NCBI GenBank assembly: GCA_964510085.1 | Contig: CAZEAB010000004.1 | Location: forward strand, 9,284-73,283 | DNA from: an uncultured Methanosarcinales archaeon | Lineage (GTDB): Archaea > Nanobdellota > Nanobdellia > Woesearchaeales > GW2011-AR9 | Length of the DNA stretch: 64,000 bases | Direction of reading: 5' to 3' | Part shown: positions 1,373 through 48,422 of the stretch, piece after piece | Position numbering within the stretch: position 1 is the stretch's first letter | Layout of the letters: every line of letters starts with the position of its first letter | Made by a program: the position numbers and the translations under genes | The notes under the pieces: generated by a model | Database searches by the model: none | Told to the model about the DNA's origin: nothing | The model's input: the letters and a program-made list of their open reading frames with translations, nothing else

Positions 1373-2176
1373 ATGGCATGGGAAGTTACACAAGAAGAGA
1401 AAACACTTCCTAAACTTAAGAACCCTTTATTTATTGAAGGATTACCAGGAATTGGAAATGTAGGGAAAATAGCAGTTGATTTCTTGATAGAAGAATTACA
1501 AGCGAAGAAACTCTATTCGTTTTTCTCTTATAAATTTCCTCATTCCGTATTTGTTAACGAAAAAAACCTTGTGGAAATGCCAAAAATAGAAATCTATTAC
1601 AAATCATTTGGTCCACGAAGTAAAAAAAGAGATTTATTATTATTAACAGGAGATATTCAACCAATTGATGAAGAAAGTTGTTTCACATTCTGTGAAGAAA
1701 TAATCAACATAGTCAAAAAATTTGGATGTTCTGAAATAATAACAACAGGCGGAATAGGATTACAATCAGTTCCACAAGAATCACGTGTATTTGCAACATC
1801 CAACAGCAATAAATTGCTCAAAGAATATACAACAAAAAAACTAGGTGTAGAAAAAAACATATTTGGAATAGTGGGACCAATTATCGGCGTTTCTGGACTA
1901 TTATTAGGACTAGGAAAAAAACGAAATGTTAAGGGGGTTGCACTTCTTGCAGAAACATACGGTCATCCAATGTATCTTGGAATAAAAGGAGCAAAAGAAT
2001 TACTAAAATTATTTGAAACAAAATTTAAATTTGGTATAAACTTAAAGAAAATGAGTAAAGAAATAATTGAAGTAGAAAAAGAGTTAATGAAGAAAACCAA
2101 AGAATGGGCAGCTGAAATGGGATCCGCTCGAGCAGGCGCCAAATTAAAAGAACAAGATGTAAGGTATATTGGGTAA
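1373..2176 (+). CDS. PAC2-family protein (proteasome assembly chaperone-like, COG1938)
   Basis: N-terminal LFIEGLPGIGNVGKIAVDFLIEEL motif and a 267-aa length typical of archaeal PAC2/PbaB-like proteins. Confidence 0.6.
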   Translation: MAWEVTQEEKTLPKLKNPLFIEGLPGIGNVGKIAVDFLIEELQAKKLYSFFSYKFPHSVFVNEKNLVEMPKIEIYYKSFGPRSKKRDLLLLTGDIQPIDEESCFTFCEEIINIVKKFGCSEIITTGGIGLQSVPQESRVFATSNSNKLLKEYTTKKLGVEKNIFGIVGPIIGVSGLLLGLGKKRNVKGVALLAETYGHPMYLGIKGAKELLKLFETKFKFGINLKKMSKEIIEVEKELMKKTKEWAAEMGSARAGAKLKEQDVRYIG

Positions 2177-2270
2177 TTGCCCGTTAACTGCACTCATGTC
2201 CCCCATAACTTCTACCAAAACACAAAAAATTCTACAAAAAACACTATTTTTACACACGACAACTCAACAC

Positions 2271-2282
2271 AAGCTTTATAAA
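2271..2282 (+). promoter_or_regulatory. BRE/TATA-like box AAGCTTTATAAA
   Basis: Ends 22 nt upstream of the ATG at 2305. The identical 12-mer occurs 27 nt upstream of sufB (51880-51891). Confidence 0.45.
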
Positions 2283-2304
2283 TCAATTTACTATACTAAA
2301 TGGT

Positions 2305-4266
2305 ATGCAGAAAAAGAGGTACAGTAGAGTCCTAGATAGACCTATTTTTAATAAGAGGGGTCAAGTAACTCTATTTATTATCCTTGGAATAGTTCTGCTT
2401 ATAATTCTCGTTCTCATCATACTTCTGCAGCGTGAAATAGTAACCATAACTCCAGGAAAAATAATTCCTGAAGCAAAAGATAAAATTGAAAACCAAATAA
2501 CTCTTTGTGTACAAGAAGTTGGGGAGGAAGCATTATTCAAAATTGGTCTTCAAGGGGGTTATCTTGAATTCTCAGATCAACAGCTCCGTGATGGAAATTA
2601 TGTATTACAAACACCTGTAACACCAACACCTTACTGGGCATATGGAAATACAATAGATATCCCCACATTACAATCAATCAAACAATCTGTTGATACATAT
2701 ATTGAAAACAACATAGAATCGTGCGTCTTTCCAGCAGGATTACAAGATGAAGAATTTTCATACATCTCACAGGGAACTGTAACATCGGATACAGAATTTA
2801 CCAATTCTAACGTATTGTATAACGTAGATTGGGAGATTGATGTACAAACAAAAGACGGTGAATTAGTGACAAAATTACTTCGTCATGAAACCAAATCAGA
2901 TATTAAATTTAAAGATTTATATGAAACTGCAACAAGAATAATTGAACAGGAAGTAAATGCACTTAAGTTTGAAGACATTACACAAGATCTTATTGCACTA
3001 GAACATCCAGATGTACCAGTAATGGGAATGGAAATAAGTTGTGCAGAAAAGAAATGGGCCCTCCCAACTGTACAAGAGACTCTCAAAGAATTAATCACCA
3101 CAAACATTCCTCAAATCAAGGTTTCGGGAACAGAAATAATAGACTTTCCAAAAGAGTTTCCATATTACCAGAATCATTACATCTGGGATGTTGGCGAAGA
3201 TTTTAGTAAGAAAGACGTTTCAGTAACATTCCGTTATCAAGAAAACTTTCCATTTTCATTTCAAGTAACTCCGCATGATGGTTCTTTCTTACGAAGTGGA
3301 ACACAAGGTGGTTCAGACATCTTATCGGCATTATGTGTGCAAATGTGGAAATTTACATATGATGTTTCATATCCTGTATTAATGAAAATAAAAGATGATA
3401 ACTCAGGATTTGTATTTAACACAGCATTTACAGTACATTTATTACGAAACAATCCAAGTAGGGAAAGTTTTGTTCAAGCATTAAACCCTGATTTAGTTTC
3501 AACCATTCCTGGAGACGACTTTTGCTCTAACAGACGTATTCCAATGACTATTCTAACATCTTCAGTAGTAGATAGTCCAGAAACAGGAGTTTCATTCTCT
3601 GAACCAGTTGAAGGAGTTAATGTTTCATTCACCTGTATCAAACACAAATGTGACATGGGTTCAACAGTACTTGACTTTGATAATAGAGGATACCAAGCAG
3701 GTTTTACTCGAAACTTCCCATTCTGTGTTGGTGGTATTTTACGAGCAACAAAAGAGGGTTATAAAGAATCTTGGCAACGTGTGTTAACTGAAAATTCAAA
3801 ACAAGTTGAAATAGAATTAACTCCATTACATCTCATTCCTGTGCAGAACGTAAAGATAGTTTCTCATGATGAAAAAGAAAATGGAGTTGGACCAGCAACA
3901 ACTCTTACAGAAGATGAAACTGCAATAGTAACTATAAAATCTCTCAAAAAGGATGAGAAAAACAAACCATTCCACGAATCAACAATAGTCACTTCAGCTT
4001 CAGGTTTAGATGTAGAAGGATTTAGTAACTTAGAATTATTAGCAGGAGCAGATTTCACATATGACTTTGATGTAACCGTGTTCAAGAATGATTTGTTTAT
4101 AGCAGGATACAAGGGAAACTGGACTGTCCAATGGGATGAATTGCAACCAAATTCACAGATTACAATACATACAATAGGTAAGGATATGACTCCAGAAGAA
4201 TCATTTGGATTCATTTCACAATTACATTCAAAATCACTACTGGTGCCATCACCAGAAATAAAATGA
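2305..4266 (+). CDS. large extracellular protein with type IV pilin-like (class III) signal peptide
   Basis: The N-terminus ...FNKRG|QVTLFIILGIVLLIILVLIILL fits the [KR]-G-[Q]-hydrophobic prepilin pattern. It is a paralog of the partial ORF at 63539, sharing C(V/I)(Q/E), QGGY and Y(I)(E/N)N..(E)..C blocks. Its stop overlaps the next start (ATGA at 4263-4266). Confidence 0.6.
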   Translation: MQKKRYSRVLDRPIFNKRGQVTLFIILGIVLLIILVLIILLQREIVTITPGKIIPEAKDKIENQITLCVQEVGEEALFKIGLQGGYLEFSDQQLRDGNYVLQTPVTPTPYWAYGNTIDIPTLQSIKQSVDTYIENNIESCVFPAGLQDEEFSYISQGTVTSDTEFTNSNVLYNVDWEIDVQTKDGELVTKLLRHETKSDIKFKDLYETATRIIEQEVNALKFEDITQDLIALEHPDVPVMGMEISCAEKKWALPTVQETLKELITTNIPQIKVSGTEIIDFPKEFPYYQNHYIWDVGEDFSKKDVSVTFRYQENFPFSFQVTPHDGSFLRSGTQGGSDILSALCVQMWKFTYDVSYPVLMKIKDDNSGFVFNTAFTVHLLRNNPSRESFVQALNPDLVSTIPGDDFCSNRRIPMTILTSSVVDSPETGVSFSEPVEGVNVSFTCIKHKCDMGSTVLDFDNRGYQAGFTRNFPFCVGGILRATKEGYKESWQRVLTENSKQVEIELTPLHLIPVQNVKIVSHDEKENGVGPATTLTEDETAIVTIKSLKKDEKNKPFHESTIVTSASGLDVEGFSNLELLAGADFTYDFDVTVFKNDLFIAGYKGNWTVQWDELQPNSQITIHTIGKDMTPEESFGFISQLHSKSLLVPSPEIK

Positions 4267-7200
4267 GTAACATAAGAAAAATATCTGTACTTCTTGTTAT
4301 CTTACTATTTGTTAATCTACCTCTTGTAAGTGCGTTACAATTCTCTGGAGTAGATGCAAAAGTAACCGAAAACTCTGCAGTAATTTCGTGGCAAACTGAT
4401 GAACCTGCAGATAGTTTCGTACGATATGGAACAGATAAAACACAGATGACCCCAATAGGAGATTCTGCTGAAGTTACCAGCCATTCACTTTCGATTACTG
4501 GCTTGCAACCTGAAACAACATATGTCTATGAAGTTGAAAGTAATAACGAGATTGACAACAACAATGGCTCTCTTTATTCATTCACAACTCCTACGCCAGA
4601 TACAACACCTCCAACACTTGATGTGAATATCTCCACAAAAATAAAAGGAACAACTTTAGAAGCAACAGGAACAACAGAAGCAGGAATAGAAGTAATTGTG
4701 TTACTCGGAACTGTTGAAGTAAAGAGAATAACAACAGATGAAACAGGAACATTTTCAGTAAAATTTACAATAGCACCAGACGTATTAAACCCAGTTACAT
4801 TTATTGCTAAAGATCCTTCCGGGAACACGGTTTCAAAATCATACAGTGTTTTATCAGATACAACAAGACCAAAAATAACATTACAGAAACTTCCTGACAT
4901 TATTGGAGATAAACAATTCTCATTAAATGGTACAATCTCAGAAAACAGTTCAATTGAAGTGTTATTAAACAATAAAAGTATTCATTCCTCTATTGGAACA
5001 TCTTTTGAAGCAAAATTAAACGTTAATGAAGGAACAAACAATCTTGTTGTAACAGCAACAGATTCAGCTGGTTGGGTTACGTCTCTTACAAAAAAACTTA
5101 ATTCAGACACAGAAGCACCAACAGTAAAGTTTGATGTGTCTAAAGGAACAGAATATTATGAATTTCAAGCAGAATCTTCAATTACCGGAACTACAGAACC
5201 AGGAGCGACTGTATATCTCTATGTCTTTGTACCACAAACGCAGGAAACACGATTACGGTTTGATAGAGCTCTTCAAAAAGTCACAGCAAATTCAGAAGGA
5301 AAGTTTATATTTGAAGAAGTAGATTTCTCTGGATTAGGAACGTCAACAATAGACACATTATCACCAACACATCTTCCTCCTGGCTTAGAGGGAATAATTC
5401 TTCCAAAGTTAGATAGAATTCAGCAAGCTCAACGAGTAAATTATAGAGTATATGTACTAGCGGAAGATAAATCCGGTAAAGTTGGCCATGCAACTAAAAC
5501 AGTATATGTAAACAGTTGTTCTTCTGGAGATTATGCATTTGATGTATTCGTTCCTCCACAATTTCCTGTACAACCATTAAAATTAAACCCGCTTCTTATG
5601 AAAGAAGGAAGAGAATCAATGTCTGTAGTGTATAACTTAACCTACAGAGGAGCAGCTCTACCAACAATAAACACTAATACTGGCGATACTGAAAACCCAT
5701 ACAGGATCTCAAATGTTAAATTTGAAAAAGCATGTACGAAAGCGAATGCCGATAAAGACGATTTTAATATTGGATGTAAATTAGCCCCTCGATTACTTAA
5801 TGGAAAGTCAATAAAATCAGATAAGACAATGTGGTTCTTAGAAACACCATTACTTCGCACGGAAGATTTCTCAGAGATTACAGATGATGTTCTCACAGAA
5901 TTTACAAAACGGCAACTTAAAATCCCGTTAAAGATAGTAGTTAATTATCAAGAACGAAATGTAGATGGAAGTTGGCAAGCAAAAACTCAAGTTGAATGTA
6001 GAGAAATAGGAAGTTTTGTTGATATCCCTATAGACTCTTCTTTATTAGTTCCAGATTCCCTTGCAGAATACACTGTAAGTGCAACAAATGAAACGTTACA
6101 TCAAATAAATCGTGTAAAGAAAATTTTAGATCCGCTTGTTAAATGGACTGGCGTAAGTTGTTATGGTTCTTGGTTGACGAAAGGGGTCTTAAAAATTAAC
6201 AGAGTTGTCGCTTCGTGGTATGAATCGTTCACACAAAAAGGAAGCAAAGACAAACCCGCATGTCCAACGCCAAGTAAACAACGAGAGATGTATCTTAAAT
6301 CTACATTAGATGACTGGAAGAAATTGCAATCAAAACATCCAAATGCTGCAGCAAGTATCCCAATAGATTTCAATAATGCTGAAGAACTTAAAAAGAAAAC
6401 ATTAGATGAAGCGTGTCCTTCAACAGCAGCTGCATGGGAACGAGAGGCATTCTTTGACAAATTATACAAAACAACCTGTGACAGATTCTTCTGTAGAAGT
6501 TCTCCATCAAGATGGACTGAAACAGAAACCGAAGAAGATGTAAAGAAAGTTGTATTAGATCAACAACAATGTGCTGCGTCAAGTAATTGTATCACCATGA
6601 CTCCAGTAGAGAATTGTCAGAATGAATTGAAAAAGAATCCTGCTGCGGGTGAAATTGTCCGAGTTCGTCAAGAGAAGGGATCATTTACCTGTTGGAGAGA
6701 CAGAGAAGGAACATTATATTATCATTGTACTGAAAATGATGCAGATGTAGAGTGTAAGAAACGTGCAGAATCACTTGAAGAGAAAGGTGTATGGATTTTA
6801 AAACCAGTATTATCTATTGGCAAGAGTAAACCAAAAATACTTGCACTTAAAGGAGAGTTAAATAACGTTGCATGCGTTGCTCAAGATAGAAAATGTAGTT
6901 CTGTATGTAAACGTAAGCAGGGATATGTTTCATCTAAATCTGGGTTCAAACAATCGGGAACAAAATATGTCGCTGGCGGTTCTTGTTACAAAGAAAATGC
7001 ACAAGGGAAATTAGAAGGTGTCAATGGAGTAAAAACCCACGCAAGTGCATTTACAGCAGGATATACACAAGATTGTTTCATTGCAGAAGATACGGGAGAT
7101 AAATACCAATGTGTGTGTGAACAGGATCAAGACATATTGAAAAAACAATCAAAAAAGGGTAGCAGAGAAGCACTACGAATGGAAAAAGATGTAGCAGAAC

Positions 7201-9722
7201 CGTGGATGTATAGACAAGAAAAAGTATACAAGGAAAGTAACGGCGATAAAGGAACGTATTACCCTGAATGGAGATATTATGGTGGAAGAGATTTCACAGC
7301 AGCATTCGGACTAAATCATGTAGCAGATCTTGTTGGAGAAAAAACAAACGCAAGAATAAACCCACGAGATTATGTTGGTGCATGGCAAACAATGTGTCTT
7401 CCACGAATTAACAACCAACTTACTGTAGCGCAAAGTGTGTTAACACAATTTCAAAACTGCGTAATACAAGCACAGAATTCAGAATTTCAAGATGCAGGTA
7501 TATGTAAAACATTCTTTGCAACAAACGTCTGTGGATGGTTATACAAGGGTATTTCCGCATTTACAAACCAATGTTCTCCATTTACATTTGATGACGTTGA
7601 AGGATTTGAAGAATTAGGTGACGGAGGAATTTCTGCATTTTCAAGAGCATTTAAGCAGGGAGTTCCTGAAGCACTAACAAGTAGCGTGAATGAATTAAAA
7701 GATGATTATGGAGCTCATGCACAAGAACAATTTAAAGTAGGAACACAAGGAGTTGCACAATCAATGTGTCTCTTCGCATTTGGTTACGATTTCCCAACAG
7801 ATTTTGATTTCATTACAGATGCAGCATATTCAACTCCAATGAAAACATCTGTGTCACCATTAATTGCAAACAGAGAATTTACTTCATTTGATCCAATAAG
7901 AGGGGTTCCAGAATTTACATATAATCTAGGAACTCTTGTAATACCAGGATGTCCTTTACGAGGATATAAAAGCTCTTTTGTCTGTATAGGAACAAACGAT
8001 TTAGGAAAACCAGGTATAGATCAAAGCTGTAGTGGACAGGGATGTGATTGTTTACAAGCATCAAATCAGAACTCTCCATTTGAAGCAGAGAAAACAAAAG
8101 TTATTCCAAGTGGAACAAAGAATGGAGTATTCCCACAATTTCAAGCAATTGATATTCCATATAAGAACCCGTTACAAGTTGAAAGCAATTTCAGATATGA
8201 CCACGTTAAATTAGAACTATACCTCGAATCTGGTGTTGACCCTAAAGAATGTTTTGATGAATCTGTTGCAACAAATGTCGGTGGAGAGATATACTTCCCA
8301 CTTTCGCATGTGGAAGGAAGAGAATTCGCACAATGTCAAGTACATGGGTCAACAGGGAGATATATCTGTCCTGCATTAAGTCAAATCTTCCAGCAAGGTG
8401 GCGCGTTCTTAGAACATCCATTTGTACAATGTTATGATAAGAGGGAAGATGAATTTGTAGATTGTCAACAACCAAATGTAATCCTTGTTGATGAAGAAAT
8501 AGTTGTGAAACCATATCTCTCAGCAATACAATCAGATTCTTGTTTAGTAATATCAGATAATAAAGGAAATGTAAAACATAACATCCTACTCCCTCAAAGT
8601 CCTGTACCAATCGCTCCTAGAATTAGTTTAGGAAAAGCAACCGCAAACTTACTTACTGGAGGACAAGTAGGAACTATAAGGAAAGTAGATTCACAAAGCG
8701 TGAGTGGCTGTGGAGGAAATGGAGGCCAAATAAATCAAATTGGATTCTCACAAACTTCAACAAAATCAAGAACGATGCCATTTGAATTTACAAGAATAAG
8801 TGGCAAATACCAATTACAAGTTCCTCATGGTATTACAGTAATACCAGGAACAGATAGTTTTGATATTAATACTAACAGATATTTAACAAAGAAAGGTGAG
8901 ATTACACTGTCTACGTCAGATGTTAACAAAGCAACATTTAGTGTTGATGGATATAGATTTAATCAAGTTCTTGGAACACCTTCACAATCTCATGGGAAAT
9001 GTGTTTATAGGACAGTTCCTTCTTATGGGGGGAAGATAAGTAAGGTTGGTGTTGGCTCAACCAGAATAAAGATTGAATTGAAACAACCAGGACCAGGAAA
9101 TAGTTGTTGGAAATCAACAAAACTTGTTGATAAAAATCCTCTTGGAAAGAACGTACATTCACAATCAATCAGGATTCAATCAGCGAAAATGGAATCTCAA
9201 TCGGTAATAACATTACATCAAGATTTCATGAATGGCAATTATCATCTCGTTGCATCAAAAGCACAAGATATTATTAAACAAGAAGAAAGTACAATGGAAG
9301 ATGCACTTGCATTATATTATTGGAGTGCAAGTTTAGTGATGCAAGGTATTGGAAATCATAACTCAGAAATTGTAAGTTTATTGAAGATATTCTTTAAACG
9401 AGAATTACAGGGGAAGAAATTATCAAATTATCCTCAAGGAGTTGTTGGTTTTGATGAGTATAAGAAAATTAGAACATATCTTTGTTTAGTAGATCAACAA
9501 GTCGGTTCACAGAATCAAAATCTATGTAAAGGCGTTGTGAGTTCTGGAACCCTATGTGCAAGTTCAACTGGATTAAAACCAGGATTCAAAAAACCAACAG
9601 GATGGAATTCATATGCATGTAAAGATTCAAAAGCGAAGGGATGTTTAGCATATACGCAATATGTTCCAAAAGGTGTAACAGGGAGGGGTTGTCCAAGTAG
9701 TCAACTATGTTGTCCAACATGA
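4263..9722 (+). CDS. giant secreted cysteine-rich protein (1819 aa; FN3-like and Ig-like N-terminal region)
   Basis: Sec-type signal MSNIRKISVLLVILLFVNLPLVSA, then an FN3-like segment (SAVISWQTDEPADSFVRYG...TTYVYEV) and Ig-like repeats. There are no Cys in the first ~415 aa and roughly 50 Cys (hand count) in the remaining ~1400 aa, ending CPSSQLCCPT. I recognise no catalytic motif. Confidence 0.7.
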   Translation: MSNIRKISVLLVILLFVNLPLVSALQFSGVDAKVTENSAVISWQTDEPADSFVRYGTDKTQMTPIGDSAEVTSHSLSITGLQPETTYVYEVESNNEIDNNNGSLYSFTTPTPDTTPPTLDVNISTKIKGTTLEATGTTEAGIEVIVLLGTVEVKRITTDETGTFSVKFTIAPDVLNPVTFIAKDPSGNTVSKSYSVLSDTTRPKITLQKLPDIIGDKQFSLNGTISENSSIEVLLNNKSIHSSIGTSFEAKLNVNEGTNNLVVTATDSAGWVTSLTKKLNSDTEAPTVKFDVSKGTEYYEFQAESSITGTTEPGATVYLYVFVPQTQETRLRFDRALQKVTANSEGKFIFEEVDFSGLGTSTIDTLSPTHLPPGLEGIILPKLDRIQQAQRVNYRVYVLAEDKSGKVGHATKTVYVNSCSSGDYAFDVFVPPQFPVQPLKLNPLLMKEGRESMSVVYNLTYRGAALPTINTNTGDTENPYRISNVKFEKACTKANADKDDFNIGCKLAPRLLNGKSIKSDKTMWFLETPLLRTEDFSEITDDVLTEFTKRQLKIPLKIVVNYQERNVDGSWQAKTQVECREIGSFVDIPIDSSLLVPDSLAEYTVSATNETLHQINRVKKILDPLVKWTGVSCYGSWLTKGVLKINRVVASWYESFTQKGSKDKPACPTPSKQREMYLKSTLDDWKKLQSKHPNAAASIPIDFNNAEELKKKTLDEACPSTAAAWEREAFFDKLYKTTCDRFFCRSSPSRWTETETEEDVKKVVLDQQQCAASSNCITMTPVENCQNELKKNPAAGEIVRVRQEKGSFTCWRDREGTLYYHCTENDADVECKKRAESLEEKGVWILKPVLSIGKSKPKILALKGELNNVACVAQDRKCSSVCKRKQGYVSSKSGFKQSGTKYVAGGSCYKENAQGKLEGVNGVKTHASAFTAGYTQDCFIAEDTGDKYQCVCEQDQDILKKQSKKGSREALRMEKDVAEPWMYRQEKVYKESNGDKGTYYPEWRYYGGRDFTAAFGLNHVADLVGEKTNARINPRDYVGAWQTMCLPRINNQLTVAQSVLTQFQNCVIQAQNSEFQDAGICKTFFATNVCGWLYKGISAFTNQCSPFTFDDVEGFEELGDGGISAFSRAFKQGVPEALTSSVNELKDDYGAHAQEQFKVGTQGVAQSMCLFAFGYDFPTDFDFITDAAYSTPMKTSVSPLIANREFTSFDPIRGVPEFTYNLGTLVIPGCPLRGYKSSFVCIGTNDLGKPGIDQSCSGQGCDCLQASNQNSPFEAEKTKVIPSGTKNGVFPQFQAIDIPYKNPLQVESNFRYDHVKLELYLESGVDPKECFDESVATNVGGEIYFPLSHVEGREFAQCQVHGSTGRYICPALSQIFQQGGAFLEHPFVQCYDKREDEFVDCQQPNVILVDEEIVVKPYLSAIQSDSCLVISDNKGNVKHNILLPQSPVPIAPRISLGKATANLLTGGQVGTIRKVDSQSVSGCGGNGGQINQIGFSQTSTKSRTMPFEFTRISGKYQLQVPHGITVIPGTDSFDINTNRYLTKKGEITLSTSDVNKATFSVDGYRFNQVLGTPSQSHGKCVYRTVPSYGGKISKVGVGSTRIKIELKQPGPGNSCWKSTKLVDKNPLGKNVHSQSIRIQSAKMESQSVITLHQDFMNGNYHLVASKAQDIIKQEESTMEDALALYYWSASLVMQGIGNHNSEIVSLLKIFFKRELQGKKLSNYPQGVVGFDEYKKIRTYLCLVDQQVGSQNQNLCKGVVSSGTLCASSTGLKPGFKKPTGWNSYACKDSKAKGCLAYTQYVPKGVTGRGCPSSQLCCPT

Positions 9723-10243
9723 AACAAGCAAGTGTAATGGTAAAATTAGTAGTATTCTTGATTGTTATAGTGGTAACAAGTTCAATTGTGTTGTTATTAG
9801 TTCGCACAGGAGTAGTAGATCCAACGGGAGAACAACAAGATGTATTAAATGTTGATTTTATTCCTATTGCAACTGGTTCGTTGAGTATTCGTAGCGTTTC
9901 ATTATGTGGTTCACTAATTGAGTTTGAATGTCTTGAAACAGAAGAGTTTTCAGTTGGACAAAAGGTTAATGTGTTGTTCTTAGTTGAGACAGATGTAGAT
10001 GCTGGCAGAGTGTTGTTAATTAGAAGTTATACGGTTAAAGATTCAGCTGGAAATGTTGTATTTGCATCTTCAGGAAATAATAATGTAGTCTTTGAAGAAA
10101 CAAGTGAAAAATCAGTAGAATTAATTGGCTTTTCAGATTCATTTACTCCAGGCGGAGTTGGTGAGTTTGTATTGGAAGCTATTGTTGAAAATCCAATCTT
10201 GGGAAAGAAAGTATCTGCAAGTAAGAGGTTTGTGATAGGATGA
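9707..10243 (+). CDS. single-pass membrane protein with beta-rich ectodomain
   Basis: N-terminal TM KLVVFLIVIVVTSSIVLLLV. The likely true start is ATG 9719, which forms an ATGA overlap with the upstream stop at 9720-9722. Its own stop overlaps the next start at 10240-10243. Confidence 0.5.
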   Translation: MLSNMKQASVMVKLVVFLIVIVVTSSIVLLLVRTGVVDPTGEQQDVLNVDFIPIATGSLSIRSVSLCGSLIEFECLETEEFSVGQKVNVLFLVETDVDAGRVLLIRSYTVKDSAGNVVFASSGNNNVVFEETSEKSVELIGFSDSFTPGGVGEFVLEAIVENPILGKKVSASKRFVIG

Positions 10244-13200
10244 AATGGGCTGTGTTAGTGGTGATGTTAGTTCTTGCTAGTTCTATGGTTCTTGCTGAAT
10301 CTTTTGGTGGTCCTGGTGGAACAGAGTTTGTATTGGATTGTGGTGAAGGTTACTTAATTAATGGAATTGGTGGAAAAGAAGGAGCGTTAATAGATCAGTT
10401 ATTTGTCAATTGTATTAATCCGTTTAAAGATGAAGGTCAACGGAGAAGTATAAAAGAAGCAGGAGGAAAAGGTGGAGAAGATTTTGCATTTTTTTGTCAT
10501 GAAAGGAAATATGTTTCAAAAATCAATATGCACAAAGCAGGAGATTTTATTTCAGGATTACAAGCAGTATGTACTGATGGAACAAAATCAAAAATATTTG
10601 GAACGGAACAAAAAGGATTTGATTCTTTATTTTGTGATGCAAAGAATCCAGCTTTATCAACAATAGCTGGGAAAGCAGGAAATTTTTTAGATTCAATTAG
10701 TTTTGATAGATCTGTATGCCATATAATCCCAACAGCAGAAGATATTCTCAATGCGAAAATACCTCAAGAAGTAAGAAATGCCGAAGCTCCAATTGGGTTA
10801 CCAGAAATTGGAACAGAAACTCCTACAGAAGAAAATGGTGTGTTTACATGGAATAAAGAAGGAGTAGAGATTGTATATGATGGAAATAATATTGTATGGA
10901 AGAATTCTCTTGGAGAATGGGTTCTTGACATTAATTCTAAATCTAAAAGCTTTCAATCGACAACTCAATCAGTTAACTATTGGTCATTAGACAAAGTAAT
11001 TAATAGTGTTAACGTACCTTCCGGATTTCCAACACCGGATAGGAATGCAGATTGGAATATAGAGAAAGAAAGAAAACATATAAAAATTAATGTTGATGAA
11101 TGGGAAGTAACGTATTTTGTAGATGGAAGCAAGCAATGGAGGCGTGCAGATATAGCATACTCTGTATGGGCCGAGAGTAGCATTGGAAAATTCTTCCTTG
11201 GAAAACGTGAAGATTGGGGAGCATTAAAAGATACAGAAACAGGACCACCATTAGGTGTGCCAGGTTATTCAGGAAATCCAGCAAGTTCTATCTCCATATT
11301 TGATGGAGTATATGATTATTGGGATGTAAATGAATGGAGAATCTTTAAGAAACAAAACGAGAATGAATTTATATGGCAACGTGGTGGAAGGTGGTATTAT
11401 TATGATAATGGAAAACAAGTAAGCCAACCATATGCATCAGAATGGCCTTCTCCACATAGTTTCTCTCCTACATTTGAAACAAGTGGAAGTTCTTGGGTAT
11501 TAAGTAATAATGCTGCTAAGAAAATACAAGACCCATCACTTCAATGTGTTGGTAAATCTATTGGAATAACTGGAGCGTCAAATACCGTTGGTTCTCAAAG
11601 TTGGGCAAATAAACATTTACAAAAATTATGCGGTTCGAAATCAAAAATAAAAGTAAAAGCTACAGGTGGTTGGGGTCCTACAAAACAAAAAGCATTCTTA
11701 ACAAAAGATTTTCTTACACATAATAACGCCCCTTTAGATATTTTGGTAATTAATCCTTCCGGAAATTCTATTACTGGAGGCTCATGTAAAGATATGTACA
11801 AAGATCTAGATACAATGATTAACACCGCATTTGAAAATAATGTGAAGAAAGTTGCTGTAATGACTATTAGCCCTCGTTCAAACTGGCAGAAGAATTGTGT
11901 TGTAAAATATAATAACGGTTTACAAAAATTTATCACAGAGAATATTCAATCTTCACGAGCAGCAAAAGTACAGGTAATACATATTGAAAATGCGCTTATA
12001 ACTCCAGATAAACCAACCCATTGTGCATATTGTAACAAAGGGAATCAACGACATTGGAATTCAGAAGGACATTCACGAGTTGCAGCAGCAGTATATCAAA
12101 ACTTATTTGCTGCGCCAGGAGATTATACCCCAGAACAGATTACCAATTTACGTCGACAATTCGGATTAACATACTCACAGAAGGATGGTGCTGCTGTTTC
12201 AACACCATCTCCACCTATTTTTGACCAGAATTGTTTAGATTTGAATACATGTAAAGAAATTGATGAAGCATGGGGAAAATTATCTAAAGGACTTGGTGTA
12301 GGTGGAAAACCAGCTGAAAATGTATGGGTGAGAGATGCTGGCTGGAAGAAGTTTGAGGATGTGTATAGAAAAGTAACTGTTGAGAGTAGTAAAGGTTCTC
12401 AAAAAAGTCCAGTACCTGTATCAAATGCAATTGATATTTCCCATCATCAGGGTAAGATTGATTGGAAGAAGGTTAAAGCAGCAGGAATAGATTATGCATT
12501 CATTAAAGCATCTGAACATACAACATTTGTTGATAAAAGATTTAAAGAAAATGTAAAGAACGCACAAGCTGCAGGTGTTGAAGTTCTCGGATTATATCAT
12601 TTTGCACAACCAATGAAAAATAGTGCAGTAGAAGGAGCACAACATTTTGTAGAAACAACGAAGGGATACCTTGGAAATGGTATTAGGCCAGTATTAGATG
12701 TGGAAGCAGGAAAAGAATTAGGGAAGAAAGGCGTTTCAGATTGGGTTCTTACGTGGTTACAACATGTTGAAAAGAAAACAGGTCAGAAACCAATAATATA
12801 TGGAGGCAATTACGCTCGTAATTATATGGATGAGAGAATCGTCGATAAATATGATTTGTGGTATGCAAGTTGGACACATAATCCTAACAAAAAGCCAAGA
12901 AGTCCGAGTCCATGGAGTGGATATAAATACTGGCAATATAGTGATAGGGGAAGTGTAGATGGTATTTCTGGAGATGTAGATTTAGATGTTGTAAAAGTAA
13001 CATCTGGTCTTATTGCAGGAATTACAGATGAACAGATAGAGGCACATCAACCTAAAGTTATAGAAGAGAAAGTTGTTAAATATGATACGTTTGAAGTAAA
13101 AACAACATTTAGAGGATTCTTAGATGGAAGTTCTGGAAATGATAGACAAGAATACAAATATTTTATCTTACATGATGGTTCTGCAAATAAAATCCCAGAA

Positions 13201-13707
13201 TGTAATCTTGCAGTTGCAAAAACCGTTGGGTTATGGAAAGCTCGTGCAGTACTTCAAAATTCAAAAGTATCTTCTCATTATTACATATGTCATGACGGAA
13301 CAATTCACCAAATATTAGCAGATCAACGTGTAGGATATCATGCTGGCTGTCCATATAAAGGAAGTCCAAAAGAGTTATGTCCAATCTCTAATGTTAATAG
13401 AAGGTCAATTGGAATAGATTTCCAGAACTATGGTGGAGCAGTGAACTCATATACTGGTTCTAAGTATACGCAAGCGCAATATGATGCAGCTAATAACTTA
13501 ATGGCCTTCCTTGGTAATCTTCACAATATCCCTGTAGATGATGAACATATTCTAGGACATTTTGAAGTTACCAAAACAGTAAAGACAGCAGCCCAATTAA
13601 ACAAAAATGACCCCTATCCTCCATTTGATTGGTCTAAGATCGCAGGATTGAAGTATGACCATCAGCAGAAGAATGGTCCTAAGATGGATCCATTAGTTAC
13701 AGGATAA
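10240..13707 (+). CDS. secreted multidomain peptidoglycan hydrolase (beta-prism lectin-like + SGNH esterase-like + GH25 muramidase + amidase_2)
   Basis: - Signal peptide MKWAVLVVMLVLASSMVLA.
- About 10297-10725: three GGxGGxxF...I.G..G..ID/IS repeats (jacalin-like beta-prism).
- About 11545-12100: SGNH-like blocks (GASNTVG, PSGNS, HWNSEGH).
- About 12424-12995: GH25 signature (DISHHQGKIDW...FIKASEH...AGVEVLGLYHF...DVE).
- About 13150-13635: amidase_2/AmpD-like (SSHYYICHDGTIHQ...GYHAG...SIGIDFQN...ILGHFEV...KNDPYPPFDW). Confidence 0.8.
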   Translation: MKWAVLVVMLVLASSMVLAESFGGPGGTEFVLDCGEGYLINGIGGKEGALIDQLFVNCINPFKDEGQRRSIKEAGGKGGEDFAFFCHERKYVSKINMHKAGDFISGLQAVCTDGTKSKIFGTEQKGFDSLFCDAKNPALSTIAGKAGNFLDSISFDRSVCHIIPTAEDILNAKIPQEVRNAEAPIGLPEIGTETPTEENGVFTWNKEGVEIVYDGNNIVWKNSLGEWVLDINSKSKSFQSTTQSVNYWSLDKVINSVNVPSGFPTPDRNADWNIEKERKHIKINVDEWEVTYFVDGSKQWRRADIAYSVWAESSIGKFFLGKREDWGALKDTETGPPLGVPGYSGNPASSISIFDGVYDYWDVNEWRIFKKQNENEFIWQRGGRWYYYDNGKQVSQPYASEWPSPHSFSPTFETSGSSWVLSNNAAKKIQDPSLQCVGKSIGITGASNTVGSQSWANKHLQKLCGSKSKIKVKATGGWGPTKQKAFLTKDFLTHNNAPLDILVINPSGNSITGGSCKDMYKDLDTMINTAFENNVKKVAVMTISPRSNWQKNCVVKYNNGLQKFITENIQSSRAAKVQVIHIENALITPDKPTHCAYCNKGNQRHWNSEGHSRVAAAVYQNLFAAPGDYTPEQITNLRRQFGLTYSQKDGAAVSTPSPPIFDQNCLDLNTCKEIDEAWGKLSKGLGVGGKPAENVWVRDAGWKKFEDVYRKVTVESSKGSQKSPVPVSNAIDISHHQGKIDWKKVKAAGIDYAFIKASEHTTFVDKRFKENVKNAQAAGVEVLGLYHFAQPMKNSAVEGAQHFVETTKGYLGNGIRPVLDVEAGKELGKKGVSDWVLTWLQHVEKKTGQKPIIYGGNYARNYMDERIVDKYDLWYASWTHNPNKKPRSPSPWSGYKYWQYSDRGSVDGISGDVDLDVVKVTSGLIAGITDEQIEAHQPKVIEEKVVKYDTFEVKTTFRGFLDGSSGNDRQEYKYFILHDGSANKIPECNLAVAKTVGLWKARAVLQNSKVSSHYYICHDGTIHQILADQRVGYHAGCPYKGSPKELCPISNVNRRSIGIDFQNYGGAVNSYTGSKYTQAQYDAANNLMAFLGNLHNIPVDDEHILGHFEVTKTVKTAAQLNKNDPYPPFDWSKIAGLKYDHQQKNGPKMDPLVTG

Positions 13708-13757
13708 ACATAAGATTTTTAAAGAAACCACATCTCTAGCCATATGGACACACATAT

Positions 13758-13885
13758 GGCCCCGTAGCATAGTCTGGTGGTGCGCACGACTGATATTGAC
13801 TATGCAGTTATCGTGAGGTCCGGAGTTCAAATATTAGCGTTTGATAATAATTTCGAACGTTAGTGAGAAAGTCTCCGCGGGGCCA
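13758..13885 (+). tRNA. tRNA-Ile(GAU) with two inferred introns (canonical 37/38, 14 nt; T-arm, 40 nt)
   Basis: Perfect 7-bp acceptor GGCCCCG (13758-13764) / CGGGGCC (13878-13884) with discriminator A13885. D arm is GCAU-AGUCUGGUG-GUGC. Anticodon stem is CACGA (13785-13789) / UCGUG (13811-13815), with loop CUGAUA + 14-nt insert (13796-13809) + A. Variable region is AGGUC. T stem CGGAG (13821-13825) and loop UUCAAAU are followed by a 40-nt insert (13833-13872) before CUCCG (13873-13877). A T-run follows. Confidence 0.7.
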
Positions 13886-13949
13886 CTTCTTTTTCTAATC
13901 CCCATAATAACAACGCATATAAACCTCAACAAAATCATTTAGTTGATAG

Positions 13950-14690
13950 ATGTTAAAACAAACGTTTCTACACATACCAGGAATATCTAAAGAAGTGGAG
14001 TCACATATTTGGCAAAATAATATTCTCAACTGGAATGAATTCCTCGAGTCCTCACATTCAATAAACTTACCTTCTTCAAAAGTGTTGAAAATTAGAGAAC
14101 ATATAGCACGATCTCATATAGCGCTCCAAAACAAAAACCATAACTTCTTTAGCTTACCAAGTAAAGAAGAATGGAGACTTTACAGAGAATTTAAAGATCA
14201 TTGTTGCTTCTTAGATATTGAAACAACTGGATTAAGTCGGCATTATAATCACATTACCACCATTGGAGTTTATGATGGAGAAAAAAGTCGTATATTTGTC
14301 AAAGACCAAGATTTACATGAATTTGCACAAGAAATTGCAAAATATAAAGTAATAGTGACATTCAATGGAAAATGTTTTGACTTACCTTTCCTTCGAGAGA
14401 CGTTTCCAGAAATTAACTTTAACCACATTCACCTCGATTTACGATATATCATGCGTGATCTTGGTTTTTCTGGTGGGTTAAAGAGGATAGAGAGAGAAGT
14501 TGGTATTACACGAGATAATCATCTAGCTGAAGTTGATGGTTTTGAAGCAGTACGCTTATGGAGGCGCTATAAAAGTGGTGACAAACAAGCGTTACAACTC
14601 CTAAAACAATATAATGAAGCAGATGTAGTTAATCTGAAAACCCTTATGGAATTCTCTTATGACAAATTAAAAGAGAGAACTTTATTCTAA
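13950..14690 (+). CDS. RNase H-like / 3'-5' exonuclease superfamily protein (YprB-like)
   Basis: Contains CCFLDIETTGL (Exo I-like DxE) and VTFNGKCFDLPFL (Exo II-like). TATA-like CATATAAACC lies about 25 nt upstream. Confidence 0.55.
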   Translation: MLKQTFLHIPGISKEVESHIWQNNILNWNEFLESSHSINLPSSKVLKIREHIARSHIALQNKNHNFFSLPSKEEWRLYREFKDHCCFLDIETTGLSRHYNHITTIGVYDGEKSRIFVKDQDLHEFAQEIAKYKVIVTFNGKCFDLPFLRETFPEINFNHIHLDLRYIMRDLGFSGGLKRIEREVGITRDNHLAEVDGFEAVRLWRRYKSGDKQALQLLKQYNEADVVNLKTLMEFSYDKLKERTLF

Positions 14691-14753: not shown

Positions 14754-15770
14754 ATGCTAACACAGGGGGTGTGGTTTACTATGAATAAATATATAATTAC
14801 AATTTTGGCTTTAGCATTAATTTTAGTAGGATGTACTGAATATCAGAAGTACGATGCAACAGAAGAAGATTTAAGTTTAATTGATGAAATAGCAAAAATA
14901 GAAGATGAATTAGCGAATACAGATAATCCTGATTTTGAATTATTAGAAGAAGTAGAAGAAACAGTTGAAGAAGAAGTTGTTCTACCAAATCCGAAAGAAG
15001 AACAAGTTCTTATGGAAGATGCGTTAACCGTTTCAGTAAAAGAAAATGAAGCAGTGAAATTAAATGTAAAAGTAACAGATCCGGATGAAGACCCAGTAAC
15101 CTATACATTTACCGCACCATTAGATGAAAATGGTGAATGGAAGACAAACTACGGAGATGCAGGCGAATATCTTGTTACAATCACAGCAACTGACGGAAAA
15201 TTAACTACAGAAAAGAGAGTCAACATTGTAGTTGAAAGAGTTAATGTACCTCCAGTAATTGCAGAAGTAGCAGATATTGTCGTTAAAGAAGGAGAAACAG
15301 TTACATTTGAACCTACTGTAACAGATCCAAACAACGACGCAGTATCAGTAAATGTCGCAGAACCTCTTACAAGCGGCACATTTGTTACAGATCATACCAG
15401 TGCAGGTGAATATGCAATAACAGTACTTGCAACAGACGGCGAGTTAGATTCAGAAAAATCATTCAAACTAACTGTGCATGACGTAAATGAAAAACCAATC
15501 ATTACCGGTGTTGAAGATATCACCATAAAAGAAGGTGAAGTAATTACTATTAAACCAGTAGTCTCAGATTTAGATGAAGACCCATTAGTAATTACAATAA
15601 GTCAACCAGTTGGAGATGACGGAATTTGGGAAACGTCTTACACTGACCATGGTGAGTATAAGATTAGCATCGCTGCAGACGATGGCAAAGACAGAGTTAC
15701 TCAACAAATTACTGTAGTAATTGAAGATGTGAACAAAGCTCCAGAAATTGTGGACATAAGTCTACAATAA
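14754..15770 (+). CDS. surface lipoprotein with cadherin-like/Ig-like repeats
   Basis: The start is probably ATG 14781, preceded by the SD-like GGGGGTG, which gives MNKYIITILALALILVGC (lipobox-like). After an acidic linker come three ~85-aa repeats of the type V(K/T)EGE.V...P.V.DPD.D...Y....PL...G.W.T.Y.DAGEY.V...A.DG with VN.PP(V/I)I linkers. Confidence 0.65.
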   Translation: MLTQGVWFTMNKYIITILALALILVGCTEYQKYDATEEDLSLIDEIAKIEDELANTDNPDFELLEEVEETVEEEVVLPNPKEEQVLMEDALTVSVKENEAVKLNVKVTDPDEDPVTYTFTAPLDENGEWKTNYGDAGEYLVTITATDGKLTTEKRVNIVVERVNVPPVIAEVADIVVKEGETVTFEPTVTDPNNDAVSVNVAEPLTSGTFVTDHTSAGEYAITVLATDGELDSEKSFKLTVHDVNEKPIITGVEDITIKEGEVITIKPVVSDLDEDPLVITISQPVGDDGIWETSYTDHGEYKISIAADDGKDRVTQQITVVIEDVNKAPEIVDISLQ

Positions 15771-15787: not shown

Positions 15788-18097
15788 ATGAGAAAACACA
15801 TAATACTTGGTGTACTTATAGTAATTATGCTAGTTTTCTCTGCAACCGCAGCAACAAAAATCTTTAGAGTACAAGAAACAGATTTTGTCAAAATAAACGT
15901 TACAGCATTAGATCCAGATTATGATGCAGTTTTATACACATTTGGAACGCCATTAGACCAAGATGGAGAATGGCAAACAGATTTTGGAGATGCAGGTGAA
16001 TATATAGTAGACATCATAGCCTCTGATGGAAAAAGTAATACCACAAAGCAAGTAAAGATAATAGTTGAAACTAAGAATAGAGCTCCCCTTGTTAAAGTAA
16101 AAGAACTACATCTTGAAGAAGGAGATACAGTAGATTTACGAAAAACTGTAGAAGATTTAGAAGGAGATGCATTAACATACGATTTCCCTGTTGGATTTGT
16201 TGATGGCGTATTAGAAACTGGTTATAGTGATGCGGGAGAGTATGTGTATGAATTTACTGTAAGTGACGGAAAATTAGAGACTCATGCTAGAGTTAAAGTT
16301 ATTATACAAGATAAGAACGAACCCCCTATCATTAAAGACATATTTAGTGATAAAGAAAAAATTGAGATAGATGAAGGTGAAGAATTACGTTTCTATGTTG
16401 ATGTTATGGATAATGATGGTGACAAAGTCAATGTTATTTGGGAATATGATAATACAATAATAGCAACAGAACCAGTTGGATTATATGATGTAGATTTTGA
16501 TTCAGCAGGAAACCATAAATTAATTCTTACAATAAATGACTCAAGTAATATTATCACAAAGCAATGGGACATTATAATAGAAAATGTCAACAGGAAACCA
16601 GAACTTGAAGACGTAACATTAACTGTTGAAGAAGGAGACACAGTAGAATTAACTCTCCCAGAAGTAGATCAAGATGGTGATGTGTTAGAATATGTGTTTG
16701 AAGAACCATTTAATGAAGACGGAGAATGGGAAACAACATATGAAGACGCAGGAACTTATTCTGTTAACATAGTTGCAGATGACGGCGATAAGAGAACAGT
16801 CTTTATCGCTACTGTAATAGTTGAGAACGTTGATAGAAGACCAACAATTGAATTAGAAAAACATTACTGGGTAGAAGAAGGAGGCGTATTACAAATAACA
16901 TTTGATGCACAAGATCCAGATGGAGATGAATTAGATATTACAGTAAAAAATGCACCGCCTGGTTCAATATTAGATGGGAACGTATTTACATGGAATCCTA
17001 CTTTATCAGAAGTATCTCGACGAGGTGGTTTTGTAAGTGATATCTTAGCTTCATTACGAGTAGAGAAATATTTCTTACGACAAAAAAGAATTCCAATCAA
17101 AGTAGAAGCATGTGGACTAGACTTATGTGATTCTGCAAAAAGCGTTATTGCAATTCAGAACAAAAACCAAGTACCTCACTTAGAAAATATTGGAGAATTA
17201 TTTGTAAATGAAACAGATACAGTAAAAGTAAATCCAAATGGAAAAGATTATGATGGAGATATGTTACATTATAAATTTACAAAACCACTTTCAAAATATT
17301 TTGGAACGTGGAAAACTGATTATGAAGACGAAGGTGATTATACAGCATATATAACAGCATCAGATGGAGTTGACAGTGCAACGAAACCAGTTAATATAAT
17401 TGTACTTAAGAAAAACAGAGCACCACGTATTGATGTTGAAGATTCTTTTATTATATTAGAAGGAGAAACATTAACATTTACCGTTAGTGCAGATGACGAA
17501 GATATGGATAATGTTACAATCTTACTAGAAAACATGCCTCCAGGAGCATCATTTGTTGATGGTGTCTTTACGTGGATTCCTCCACAAGATTGGGTTGTGA
17601 ACAAGAGTAACTCTTGGGTTTCTGACGTAGTAAGTAAAACCGTACCTACAACACGAAAATTTAGTACAGAAAAAAGAGTACATTGGTTAACTTTCAAAGC
17701 ATTAGATGAAGAATCGGAAACAATACATCCAGTAAAATTGACTGTAAAGAATGTGAATATTGCTCCAGAGATTAAAGATTTCTTACCAGAACAGAAGATT
17801 AATGTTGGCGTTGATGAACCAGTAGTATTCCATGTAGTTGCTAGTGACTTAGATAATGATGAATTATGGTATAAATGGATGTTTGACATTGGACAAGGAA
17901 GTGTAAGTGGTTCAGACACCATAGAAAGAACGTATGTAACCATAGGAAAGAAGAAAGTAGTATTGACAGTTACAGATGGTCGGGATTCAGTAGAGAAAGT
18001 CTGGGAGATAGATGTGACTGGTGGCGGAAGTACTAGTAGTTCTTATGTAGTACCTACAGTTGGTTATGATGAGTATAAAGTGATAGTAGTTGAATGA
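15788..18097 (+). CDS. secreted adhesin-like protein with about eight cadherin-like/Ig-like repeats
   Basis: Signal peptide MRKHIILGVLIVIMLVFSATAA. It carries the same DPD/DxDGD...Y.F..PL...G.W.T.Y.D.G.Y repeat family as the upstream gene. Confidence 0.65.
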   Translation: MRKHIILGVLIVIMLVFSATAATKIFRVQETDFVKINVTALDPDYDAVLYTFGTPLDQDGEWQTDFGDAGEYIVDIIASDGKSNTTKQVKIIVETKNRAPLVKVKELHLEEGDTVDLRKTVEDLEGDALTYDFPVGFVDGVLETGYSDAGEYVYEFTVSDGKLETHARVKVIIQDKNEPPIIKDIFSDKEKIEIDEGEELRFYVDVMDNDGDKVNVIWEYDNTIIATEPVGLYDVDFDSAGNHKLILTINDSSNIITKQWDIIIENVNRKPELEDVTLTVEEGDTVELTLPEVDQDGDVLEYVFEEPFNEDGEWETTYEDAGTYSVNIVADDGDKRTVFIATVIVENVDRRPTIELEKHYWVEEGGVLQITFDAQDPDGDELDITVKNAPPGSILDGNVFTWNPTLSEVSRRGGFVSDILASLRVEKYFLRQKRIPIKVEACGLDLCDSAKSVIAIQNKNQVPHLENIGELFVNETDTVKVNPNGKDYDGDMLHYKFTKPLSKYFGTWKTDYEDEGDYTAYITASDGVDSATKPVNIIVLKKNRAPRIDVEDSFIILEGETLTFTVSADDEDMDNVTILLENMPPGASFVDGVFTWIPPQDWVVNKSNSWVSDVVSKTVPTTRKFSTEKRVHWLTFKALDEESETIHPVKLTVKNVNIAPEIKDFLPEQKINVGVDEPVVFHVVASDLDNDELWYKWMFDIGQGSVSGSDTIERTYVTIGKKKVVLTVTDGRDSVEKVWEIDVTGGGSTSSSYVVPTVGYDEYKVIVVE

Positions 18098-47048: not shown

Positions 47049-47078
47049 ATAAGGAGAAGATTTTGAAATAATTATTGT

Positions 47079-47111: not shown

Positions 47112-47193
47112 AGAATATTCCAAAAATAATGTAAATGACAAAAGTACAAAAAATGTATACATTTTTGAACATCCAAAGTGAGGTGCCTTCACT

Positions 47194-48396: not shown

Positions 48397-48422
48397 GAAG
48401 TCTATCCAGAATGAAATAAAAA

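Follow-up and report, generated by a model that had tools for sequence, protein, structure and literature searches.

A conserved four-gene surface-protein operon with a polymorphic, murein-directed fourth slot in Woesearchaeota

Archaeal murein hydrolases and a conserved four-gene operon

Few DPANN archaea are as diverse and widespread as Woesearchaeota, none of which has been cultivated. A GH25 protein of Aciduliprofundum boonei was reportedly described by Metcalf in 2014 as an archaeal secreted peptidoglycan hydrolase, and AR20 is reported to have a large extracellular murein lytic-transglycosylase protein (Castelle 2015). We describe here a block of four open reading frames (ORFs) in a Woesearchaeal stretch of 64,000 nucleotides (nt) from contig CAZEAB010000004.1 (assembly GCA_964510085.1), the whole of which is called the window; the last of the four, ORF4, is predicted to encode a secreted murein hydrolase. 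In the retrieved passages of the papers concerned, bactericidal activity was shown for the archaeal peptidoglycan hydrolases of Halogranum, 'Woldo/Danwoldo' (PLoS Biol 2025, PMC12352652), and peptidoglycan hydrolase genes are called especially frequent and diverse in Nanoarchaeota (PMC12352652). Similarly limited passages place large extracellular murein lytic-transglycosylase proteins in Woesearchaeota and Pacearchaeota, as fam00969 (Castelle 2021, PMC8204110), and the same kind of protein in the same two lineages among the metagenome-assembled genomes (MAGs) of Lake A (Vigneron 2022, PMC9723730). As far as these excerpts go, murein hydrolases have been noted in DPANN genomes since 2013-2015 and some Woesearchaeota have been suggested to attack bacteria (PMC8204110, PMC9723730, PMC12352652).

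Like the Aciduliprofundum and Halogranum enzymes, ORF4 would be a secreted modular murein hydrolase, with a GH25 domain in this case, encoded by an archaeon that has no murein; unlike those stand-alone free enzymes, it occupies a fixed, translationally coupled slot next to three conserved surface proteins and carries a module specific to that slot. With the fam00969, AR20 and Lake A proteins, in so far as the accessible text describes them, it shares the lineage and the inferred binding or degradation of bacterial walls, and SLT is also the cleaving head that fourth-slot proteins carry most often (11 of 46). Those reports, however, concern single SLT-domain proteins, and the passages retrieved from them mention neither an operon context nor head alternation nor a shared module. 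The first-pass annotation of the window could match the gene combination to no described system, and term searches of the open literature, which returned passages and had most subscription journals outside their coverage, likewise found no description of the operon, the families of ORF1 and of the second, giant protein, the slot module or the head alternation. What had been isolated murein hydrolase genes now becomes a defined order-wide module with a conserved promoter, three surface proteins, a hallmark motif and an exchange slot.

The block is one real operon. On the + strand it comprises ORF1 (653 amino acids, aa; 2305..4266), the gene of a secreted 1819-aa protein, here called the giant (4263..9722), ORF3 (174 aa; 9719..10243), which encodes a single-pass membrane protein, and ORF4 (1155 aa; 10240..13707), whose predicted product is a secreted multidomain enzyme. 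These coordinates, and the ATGA stop/start overlaps that the first-pass annotation had seen between the four genes, were all found again, at 4263-4266, 9719-9722 and 10240-10243 (junctions aaaATGAgt, caacATGAaac and ggATGAaat). For ORF3 the ATG at 9719 is preferred to the one at 9707, which would give 178 aa, on the alignment with relatives, and most public gene calls have 174 aa. An archaeal promoter lies ahead of ORF1 (2268..2296, + strand), made up of a CACAAGC motif resembling a B recognition element (BRE; 2268-2274), the TATA box TTTATAAA (2275-2282), 30 nt upstream of the ORF1 ATG at 2305, and a proximal element ACTATAC (2290-2296). The earlier claim of a single TATA-like box was correct, TTTATAAA being the only TTTATAWA on the + strand within 2100-13950. 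The same element stands at -30 +/-1 in 44 of about 56 related loci with its flanking motifs conserved, and the consensus reads CA(T/C)AA(G/C)C-TTTATA(A/T)A, about 8 nt, and ACTAT(A/C)C. Since the TATA box is fixed at -30 from the ATG within a conserved promoter, the spacing suggests that the ORF1 transcript is leaderless or has a very short leader, and expression would probably be strong. A scan for bacterial sigma-70 promoters and terminators showed no enrichment; such a scan is unsuited to an archaeon, and the archaeal TATA search was used instead. All four proteins have one hydrophobic segment, at the N-terminus, which is consistent with export or membrane anchoring, and the G+C content is uniform over the block (0.34-0.37).

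The four-gene module is a core feature of Woesearchaeota, and the block is its local copy. Hundreds of full-length relatives of ORF1 (about 650-700 aa, 42-53% identical) were found, all in Woesearchaeota/Nanoarchaeota MAGs and all unannotated; a scan of species-representative genomes placed them in at least 420 species genomes, and an exhaustive profile search returned 928 clusters at 50% identity (E <= 1e-30), whose named distant members are Woesearchaeota. The large family that ORF1 founds is specific to Woesearchaeota, and neither Pfam nor NCBIfam has a model of it. Three metagenome contigs and 79 species loci have the genes in the order PAC2, ORF1-like gene, giant (about 1800-2000 aa), a 175-220-aa membrane protein and a fourth gene, with stops and starts that usually overlap. 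The ORF1-giant pair is present in 62 of the 79 species loci; three have the giant split into at least two ORFs, and the rest are truncated by their contigs. Among the 62, the small gene was found in 54 and a following ORF in 46. The complete order, that is ORF1-like protein, giant, membrane protein of about 185 aa and a fourth-slot protein with the Cys module described below, occurs in the window and in 41-46 other species. The cluster is usually single-copy and lies beside housekeeping genes. An arrangement found again in dozens of genomes goes far beyond what chance would give. It agrees with the first-pass view of the block as a module: in essentially every related locus with enough sequence, the gene of the small membrane protein comes after those of ORF1 and the giant. 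The module can also be duplicated: MAG ARS1203 has two divergent ORF1-giant clusters on separate contigs (L036 and L079), whose ORF1 proteins are 40% and 36% identical to that of the window.

The genes of the locus differ in conservation. Compared with the window, PAC2 has a median identity of 70%, ORF1 of 43%, ORF3 of 35% and the giant of 34%, and the fourth slot is unalignable over its full length, a gradient that would fit a conserved scaffold with a payload exchanged between lineages. The conserved feature is the slot and not the ORF4 protein. Conserved synteny of the lysin, as the first-pass annotation envisaged it, thus holds for the position but not for the lectin-SGNH-GH25-amidase protein, of which just one full-length homologue, at 79% identity, was found in a word-seeded search that returned three proteins.

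The polymorphic fourth slot and the three surface proteins

Catalytic heads swap between lineages, and the slot is polymorphic with murein-directed domains. In a Pfam scan of 46 fourth-position proteins, SLT was equalled in number by FGE-sulfatase (11 proteins) and exceeded by Lipase_GDSL_2 (12); Amidase_2 was found in seven, DUF2272 in five, Peptidase_M15_4, Phage_lysozyme2 and Exo_endo_phos in three each, and Peptidase_M74, Polysacc_deac_1, Glucosaminidase, Hydrolase_2 (SleB-like) and Metallophos in two each. GH25 occurs in one fourth-slot protein, that of the window, and in no other surveyed relative. When 31 fourth-slot proteins were scanned singly, 22 had a canonical murein-cleaving domain and the rest an esterase, a deacetylase or DUF2272. 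A Sec-type signal peptide is present in nearly all of the fourth-slot proteins. The peptidases of families M15 and M74 cleave bonds of D-amino acids, and such bonds are specific to bacterial murein; the exchange of heads, with such families among them, suggests that the substrate is bacterial murein whose chemotype varies. The FGE-sulfatase domain, which has a C-type-lectin-like fold, is often accompanied by DUF2272, and the slots with it include those of L009, L011, L012, L018, L019, L024, L027 and L038.

What these proteins have in common is a hallmark module of about 50 aa, C-x4-5-C-x-E-I-D-x-[VA]-W followed by some 35 further residues. A hidden Markov model (HMM) of it matched 39 of 46 fourth-slot ORFs, and its 12 other matches were the ORF4 of the window or ORFs in or just after the slot; the window and the retrieved loci gave no other match. 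Of the seven ORFs that it missed, at least three are enolase genes, so that those genomes have no fourth gene at that place. The module links proteins that are otherwise dissimilar: the fourth-slot proteins of L003 and L005 showed no BLAST similarity to ORF4, and that of L003 was later connected with it through the HMM. That the module is restricted to the slot points to a specific partnership with the operon rather than chance co-transcription.

ORF4 begins with a cleavable-type signal peptide, has no membrane anchor and was described by the first-pass annotation as a lectin-SGNH-GH25-amidase_2 enzyme. The two C-terminal catalytic domains were strongly matched. The GH25 muramidase (aa 731-909; 12430..12966, + strand, as are all coordinates in this paragraph) matches PF01183 over profile positions 1-180 of 180 (1e-43, 150.2 bits, cut-off 27) and cellosyl in the PDB (1jfx, 4.8e-24); its catalytic motifs AIDISHHQG/LDVEAG/GDVDLD are intact and align with GIDVSHWQG/LDIEHN/GDVDRN of cellosyl, and the N-terminal Asp (DxS), the D-x-E pair and the C-terminal Asp are all present. 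This domain is predicted to cleave the bond MurNAc-beta-1,4-GlcNAc between N-acetylmuramic acid (MurNAc) and N-acetylglucosamine (GlcNAc) in murein. The Amidase_2 domain (aa ~975-1138; 13162..13653), an N-acetylmuramoyl-L-alanine amidase of the AmpD/PGRP/T7-lysozyme type by Pfam, matches PF01510 (2e-18, 67.3 bits, cut-off 26), AmpDh2 in the PDB (4bj4, 6.7e-4) and AmpD of NCBIfam (1.3e-9, under the equivalog cut-off), and it keeps the zinc-ligand positions H/H/D (LHDG, HFEV, KNDP). The putative SGNH/GDSL-type esterase (aa 431-640; 11530..12159) had no direct Pfam match and was recognised through relatives: the region is homologous to 13 fourth-slot proteins (1e-6 to 1e-55), in several of which Pfam identifies the matching part as Lipase_GDSL or Lipase_GDSL_2, and the Ser (GASNT), Gly (GG), Asn (PSGN) and His (RH) of the SGNH blocks are present. 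It is probably a peptidoglycan de-O-acetylase. The lectin head did not fare as well. A jacalin-like domain is tentatively placed at aa 20-154 (10297..10701) on weak Pfam and PDB matches: the PF01419 alignment spans 133 of the 136 profile positions but scores 18-19.4 bits (E 0.0015-0.004), where 22 is the cut-off, PDB 7kmu has E 0.023, and no BLAST match to this head was found among the surveyed fourth-slot proteins of relatives. Between the lectin-like head and the esterase lies a Trp-rich region (aa 164-430; 10729..11529) that ORF4 has in common only with the fourth-slot protein of the closest relative, and the hallmark Cys-motif module (aa ~650-725; 12187..12414) scores 67 bits with the module HMM. 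ORF4 is a new member of known enzyme families.

In ORF1, which was called pilin-like in the first-pass annotation, the N-terminus reads KRG and then QVTLFIILGIVLL, which fits the archaeal class III (prepilin) pattern, a [KR]-[GA] site followed by a hydrophobic helix (the FlaFind rule, applied as a pattern and not with the program itself); the residues Q20, T22, F24, I25 and G28 are the same in all of 58 family members. A pilin-like class III signal, including its cleavage, is predicted from this N-terminal motif alone. The prepilin-type pattern stands, but neither the curated pilin and archaellin N-terminal models nor any other Pfam or NCBIfam entry matched ORF1 at E <= 0.1. The operon has no prepilin peptidase, ATPase or platform gene. 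A 764-aa secretion ATPase of the T2SSE/type IV filament type is encoded 47 kb from ORF1 (60847-63141, - strand) and is the sole type IV filament component among the subset of window ORFs that was scanned. The motif [KR]GQ[VI]T.F[IV][IV] also heads unrelated proteins of relatives (L005 5405-8629, 1071 aa; L052 179-1204, about 340 aa), which suggests that these genomes may have a common class III-type targeting signal.

Behind the signal/anchor (aa 17-46), ORF1 has an alpha/beta region (aa ~60-400) with invariant E/H/D/C motifs and two C-terminal beta-sandwich domains. Its AlphaFold model (pLDDT, the predicted local distance difference test score, 82) has a single long helix at aa 19-46 followed by the same alpha/beta region and two beta-sandwich domains, and most of the family-invariant Glu, His, Asp and Cys residues sit in the modelled alpha/beta region. 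The ORF1 family profile found nothing among all PDB sequences. In a fold search with the model, the top PDB match was SlaB (8qox_B, E 1.7e-5, probability 0.99) at TM-scores of 0.14 and 0.18, and the other matches were low-TM ones to chains of beta-sandwich domains; as all fold matches were low-TM, ORF1 was placed in no known family.

The giant was described by the first-pass annotation as a Sec-secreted protein with an FN3/Ig-like N-terminal third and a Cys-rich remainder. The signal (aa 1-24), the FN3/immunoglobulin (Ig)-like array (aa ~31-400, placed by Pfam at aa 31-278) and the Cys-rich core and tail (aa 401-1819) were all recovered; the Cys-free part, however, is about 22% of the protein and not a third. 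All 50 Cys residues lie after aa 400, about 45 of them invariant in the family, and there are seven N-glycosylation sequons in the 1819 aa. The core was modelled at aa 400-1599 with a pLDDT of 73, and the model had no match at E <= 1e-3 in the PDB or in BFVD (viral structures); SlaA was absent from its top 50 PDB matches. The giant family profile had one significant match among all PDB sequences, in the N-terminal Ig array, and weaker non-significant ones in the FN3 region. ORF1 and the giant core are thus without a Pfam family or a convincing structural analogue. In one relative the giant (P0129) is fused to a C-terminal M74 murein endopeptidase domain, in an operon that keeps all four genes; two further relatives have giants with a transglutaminase-like protease core. 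The polymorphic murein-directed slot and this M74 fusion together link the operon more strongly to murein. ORF3, for which Pfam and NCBIfam gave no family match, has a small beta-rich ectodomain with two invariant Cys residues. It is a single-pass membrane protein, as first annotated, with one N-terminal hydrophobic segment, and 66 loci have an ORF3-like gene at this place.

Proposed function and competing explanations

We propose that the operon encodes a membrane-anchored surface complex which presents a modular murein hydrolase to bacterial walls, and we consider this function somewhat better than evenly supported. ORF1, with its prepilin-like helix and beta-sandwich stalk, the disulfide-rich giant with its FN3/Ig arm, and ORF3 would form the anchored complex. 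The Sec-secreted fourth protein would join it through the short Cys-motif module and carry the murein-directed heads of the particular lineage. In the window, the SGNH esterase would take the O-acetyl group off MurNAc, the GH25 muramidase would cut the MurNAc-GlcNAc bond and the Amidase_2 domain would strip the stem peptide, and the outcome would be a local opening of the wall in the touched bacterium, for attachment, predation or nutrient uptake. The physical assembly of the four proteins and the Cys-motif module as its docking element are our proposal, as are the action of the enzymes on contact rather than free and a living bacterial host or prey as the target. A bolder form of the argument is that ORF1, giant and ORF3 are an unrecognised surface machine, with folds that have no known relatives, whose ancestral and general job in Woesearchaeota would be to hold an exchangeable murein-degrading head against bacteria; this we regard as tentative and somewhat short of an even chance. 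The module suggests that Woesearchaeota routinely attack or feed on bacterial walls, and if that is true, interaction with such walls is a core trait of the lineage and not an occasional one. If the surface-machine proposal is true, Woesearchaeota would as a rule have bacteria rather than archaea as hosts or prey, and the wall chemistry of each species' partner could be read from the type of head in its fourth slot.

Two well-known kinds of system offer partial precedents. Virion-associated peptidoglycan hydrolases of phages, such as tail-tip and tape-measure lysins, likewise have a scaffold with a swapped murein hydrolase, which opens the wall locally where the particle touches it, as is proposed for the present operon from its genes; Phage_lysozyme2 and SLT heads, as in phage lysins, occur in the fourth slot. 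Unlike phage tails, the core proteins have no detected phage tail homology (for the giant core, no BFVD match at the threshold given above), and the operon is chromosomal and vertically conserved. Bacterial polymorphic effectors (Rhs/YD; contact-dependent inhibition, CDI; LXG of type VII secretion systems, T7SS; Tae/Tge of type VI secretion systems, T6SS) also combine a conserved delivery or docking part with variable heads, several of them wall-targeting. In contrast to these, the operon has no homologous component, its conserved module is internal and not N-terminal, and no immunity gene was seen; none is needed, as murein is absent from the producer. As a system the module is grouped here with archaeal anti-murein weaponry and scaffold-borne modular lysins, and the chance that its core is a new kind of surface machine is substantial.

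Several observations weigh against such a complex. An open-literature search found no bacterial host known for any Woesearchaeon. Some fourth-slot proteins have only esterase, FGE-sulfatase, phosphatase/nuclease or DUF2272 domains, the fourth gene is absent or displaced in the most divergent lineages, and a fusion search found no ORF3 domain joined to other components of the operon. Within ORF4, the Asp of SGNH block V, which relatives have, is an Asn, and the usual Glu of IGIE in the amidase is an Asp (SIGID), in ORF4 and in four of four other Woesearchaeal copies aligned. As it is conserved, the Glu to Asp change is probably tolerated; both heads may nevertheless be weakened by these changes. 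Of the catalytic residues on which the first-pass annotation made its enzyme depend, those of GH25 and the amidase's zinc-ligand positions are in place, but the amidase's usual Glu is not. Furthermore, the best structural analogue of ORF1 is an S-layer (surface layer) anchor, SlaB, and the universality of the cluster, its fixed place by housekeeping genes and its strong consensus promoter suit a general envelope structure equally well. The dedicated apparatus for attaching to and breaching bacterial walls that was first suggested is thus favoured by the co-occurrence, the murein-directed slot and the M74 fusion, but these data do not distinguish it from an envelope structure with a tethered lysin.

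An envelope operon is in fact the main competing explanation, though a rather unlikely one in our judgement. It would make ORF1 the anchor, the giant the canopy and ORF3 a further part of a general coat or S-layer-like structure, with the fourth enzyme co-transcribed and perhaps tethered and the core having no anti-bacterial role. The beta-sandwich membrane anchor encoded beside a very large secreted partner mirrors the slaB/slaA arrangement of Sulfolobales, and SlaB, which came first when the ORF1 model was compared with the PDB, serves as membrane stalk in the two-component S-layer of Sulfolobus; the cluster is near-universal, and its BRE/TATA promoter is conserved order-wide. In the retrieved passages of a metatranscriptome study, S-layer genes are among the most highly expressed genes of Woesearchaeota (PMC11606122), which would agree with such a role. 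On the other hand, the match to SlaB, with its low TM-scores, is a generic one of beta-sandwich chains, and the membrane topology is reversed, with the anchor at the opposite terminus. Nor does the giant core match SlaA or any other solved or viral structure. The giant is Cys-rich and sequon-poor, whereas archaeal S-layer proteins are typically Cys-poor and heavily glycosylated. Two extra conserved genes have no place in the SlaA/SlaB pair, one giant is itself fused to a murein endopeptidase, and the fourth-slot proteins have a module found only in the slot. If the envelope explanation is true, the module becomes the first candidate for a Woesearchaeal cell coat.

Less probable again, and to our mind distinctly improbable, is that ORF4 is a diffusible bacteriolytic or murein-scavenging enzyme and the operon merely co-regulates exported proteins. 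The lectin-plus-catalytic modular layout is typical of free lysins, and ORF4, with its signal peptide of the cleavable type, lacks a membrane anchor. According to the accessible passages (PMC12352652), it is documented that archaeal peptidoglycan hydrolases can kill bacteria as free proteins, and Nanoarchaeota are enriched in genes of this kind. A free enzyme does not account for a polymorphic gene that keeps its strict position and translational coupling across dozens of species, for a hallmark module exclusive to the slot, or for a murein endopeptidase on the giant itself in one lineage. Very improbable is a wall-remodelling or division machine of an archaeon that builds a murein-like wall of its own. 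Murein hydrolases found order-wide beside core genes might be read as its autolysins, but no Mur ligase, MraY, MurG or penicillin-binding protein (PBP) domain was found in the subset of window ORFs scanned, Woesearchaeota are treated as murein-less in the literature passages at hand, and the catalytic types differ between close relatives (GH25, SLT, M15, M74, SleB-like), unlike those of housekeeping autolysins.

The identical 1155-aa ORF4 protein in identical context is present in three independent assemblies (ENA, JGI and Logan), so that ORF4 is not a chimera. Its aa 164-728 have a homologue in the closest Woesearchaeal relative, whose fourth-slot protein aligns over this part only and ends in another domain with a weak lambda-lysozyme match, and its amidase is 35-50% identical to other Woesearchaeal fourth-slot amidases. 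The flanking genes are archaeal as well (PAC2 proteasome chaperone, NOG1, L10e, an archaeal helicase domain and a tRNA with two introns). Although GH25 and Amidase_2 are typical of bacteria and phages and the GH25 head is peculiar to the window, we give practically no credence to a piece of bacterial or phage DNA joined wrongly in assembly, or to a recent insertion of a mobile element, a concern raised with the first-pass annotation, as the agreement of the three assemblies, the even G+C content, the native Woesearchaeal middle part and the archaeal flanks exclude it as far as the sequence allows.

Neighbouring genes in the window

Directly after ORF4 lies a gene for tRNA-Ile(GAU) (13758-13887, + strand) with an intron of 14 nt at the canonical site 37/38 (13796-13809) and one of 40 nt after the T-loop (13833-13872). 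ARAGORN and Rfam missed it, and after in silico removal of the introns ARAGORN gave a clean 75-nt call; it was missed because of its two introns, and the apparent lack of any tRNA in 64 kb is therefore a detection artefact. Two adjacent ORFs follow (14754-15770 and 15788-18097, + strand; 338 and 769 aa), with PKD, Big_9 and cadherin-like repeats typical of surface proteins; they are absent at this position in relatives, which have enolase or other genes instead. Next to them a 506-aa Hel308/Ski2-like fragment (18137-19657, + strand) has Helicase_C, HTH_61, archaeal helicase domain 4 and HHH_5 but no N-terminal match to DEAD/ResIII, and may be a split or truncated helicase gene.

The block at 45-56 kb, which was suspected from its gene sizes to be a mur operon, consists in fact of genes for glycogen metabolism and SUF. 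The former is a glycogen/starch cluster (45054-51853, + strand) with a GH15 glucoamylase-like protein, a GT4/GT5 synthase, GH57 and glucokinase, and the latter an Fe-S cluster assembly group (51919-55593, + strand) with SufBD, cysteine desulfurase, a NifU-like protein and an ABC ATPase. The window also has a second giant ORF (24594-31262, + strand) of 2222 aa, with three LamG/ConA-like lectin domains and several bacterial Ig-like domains.

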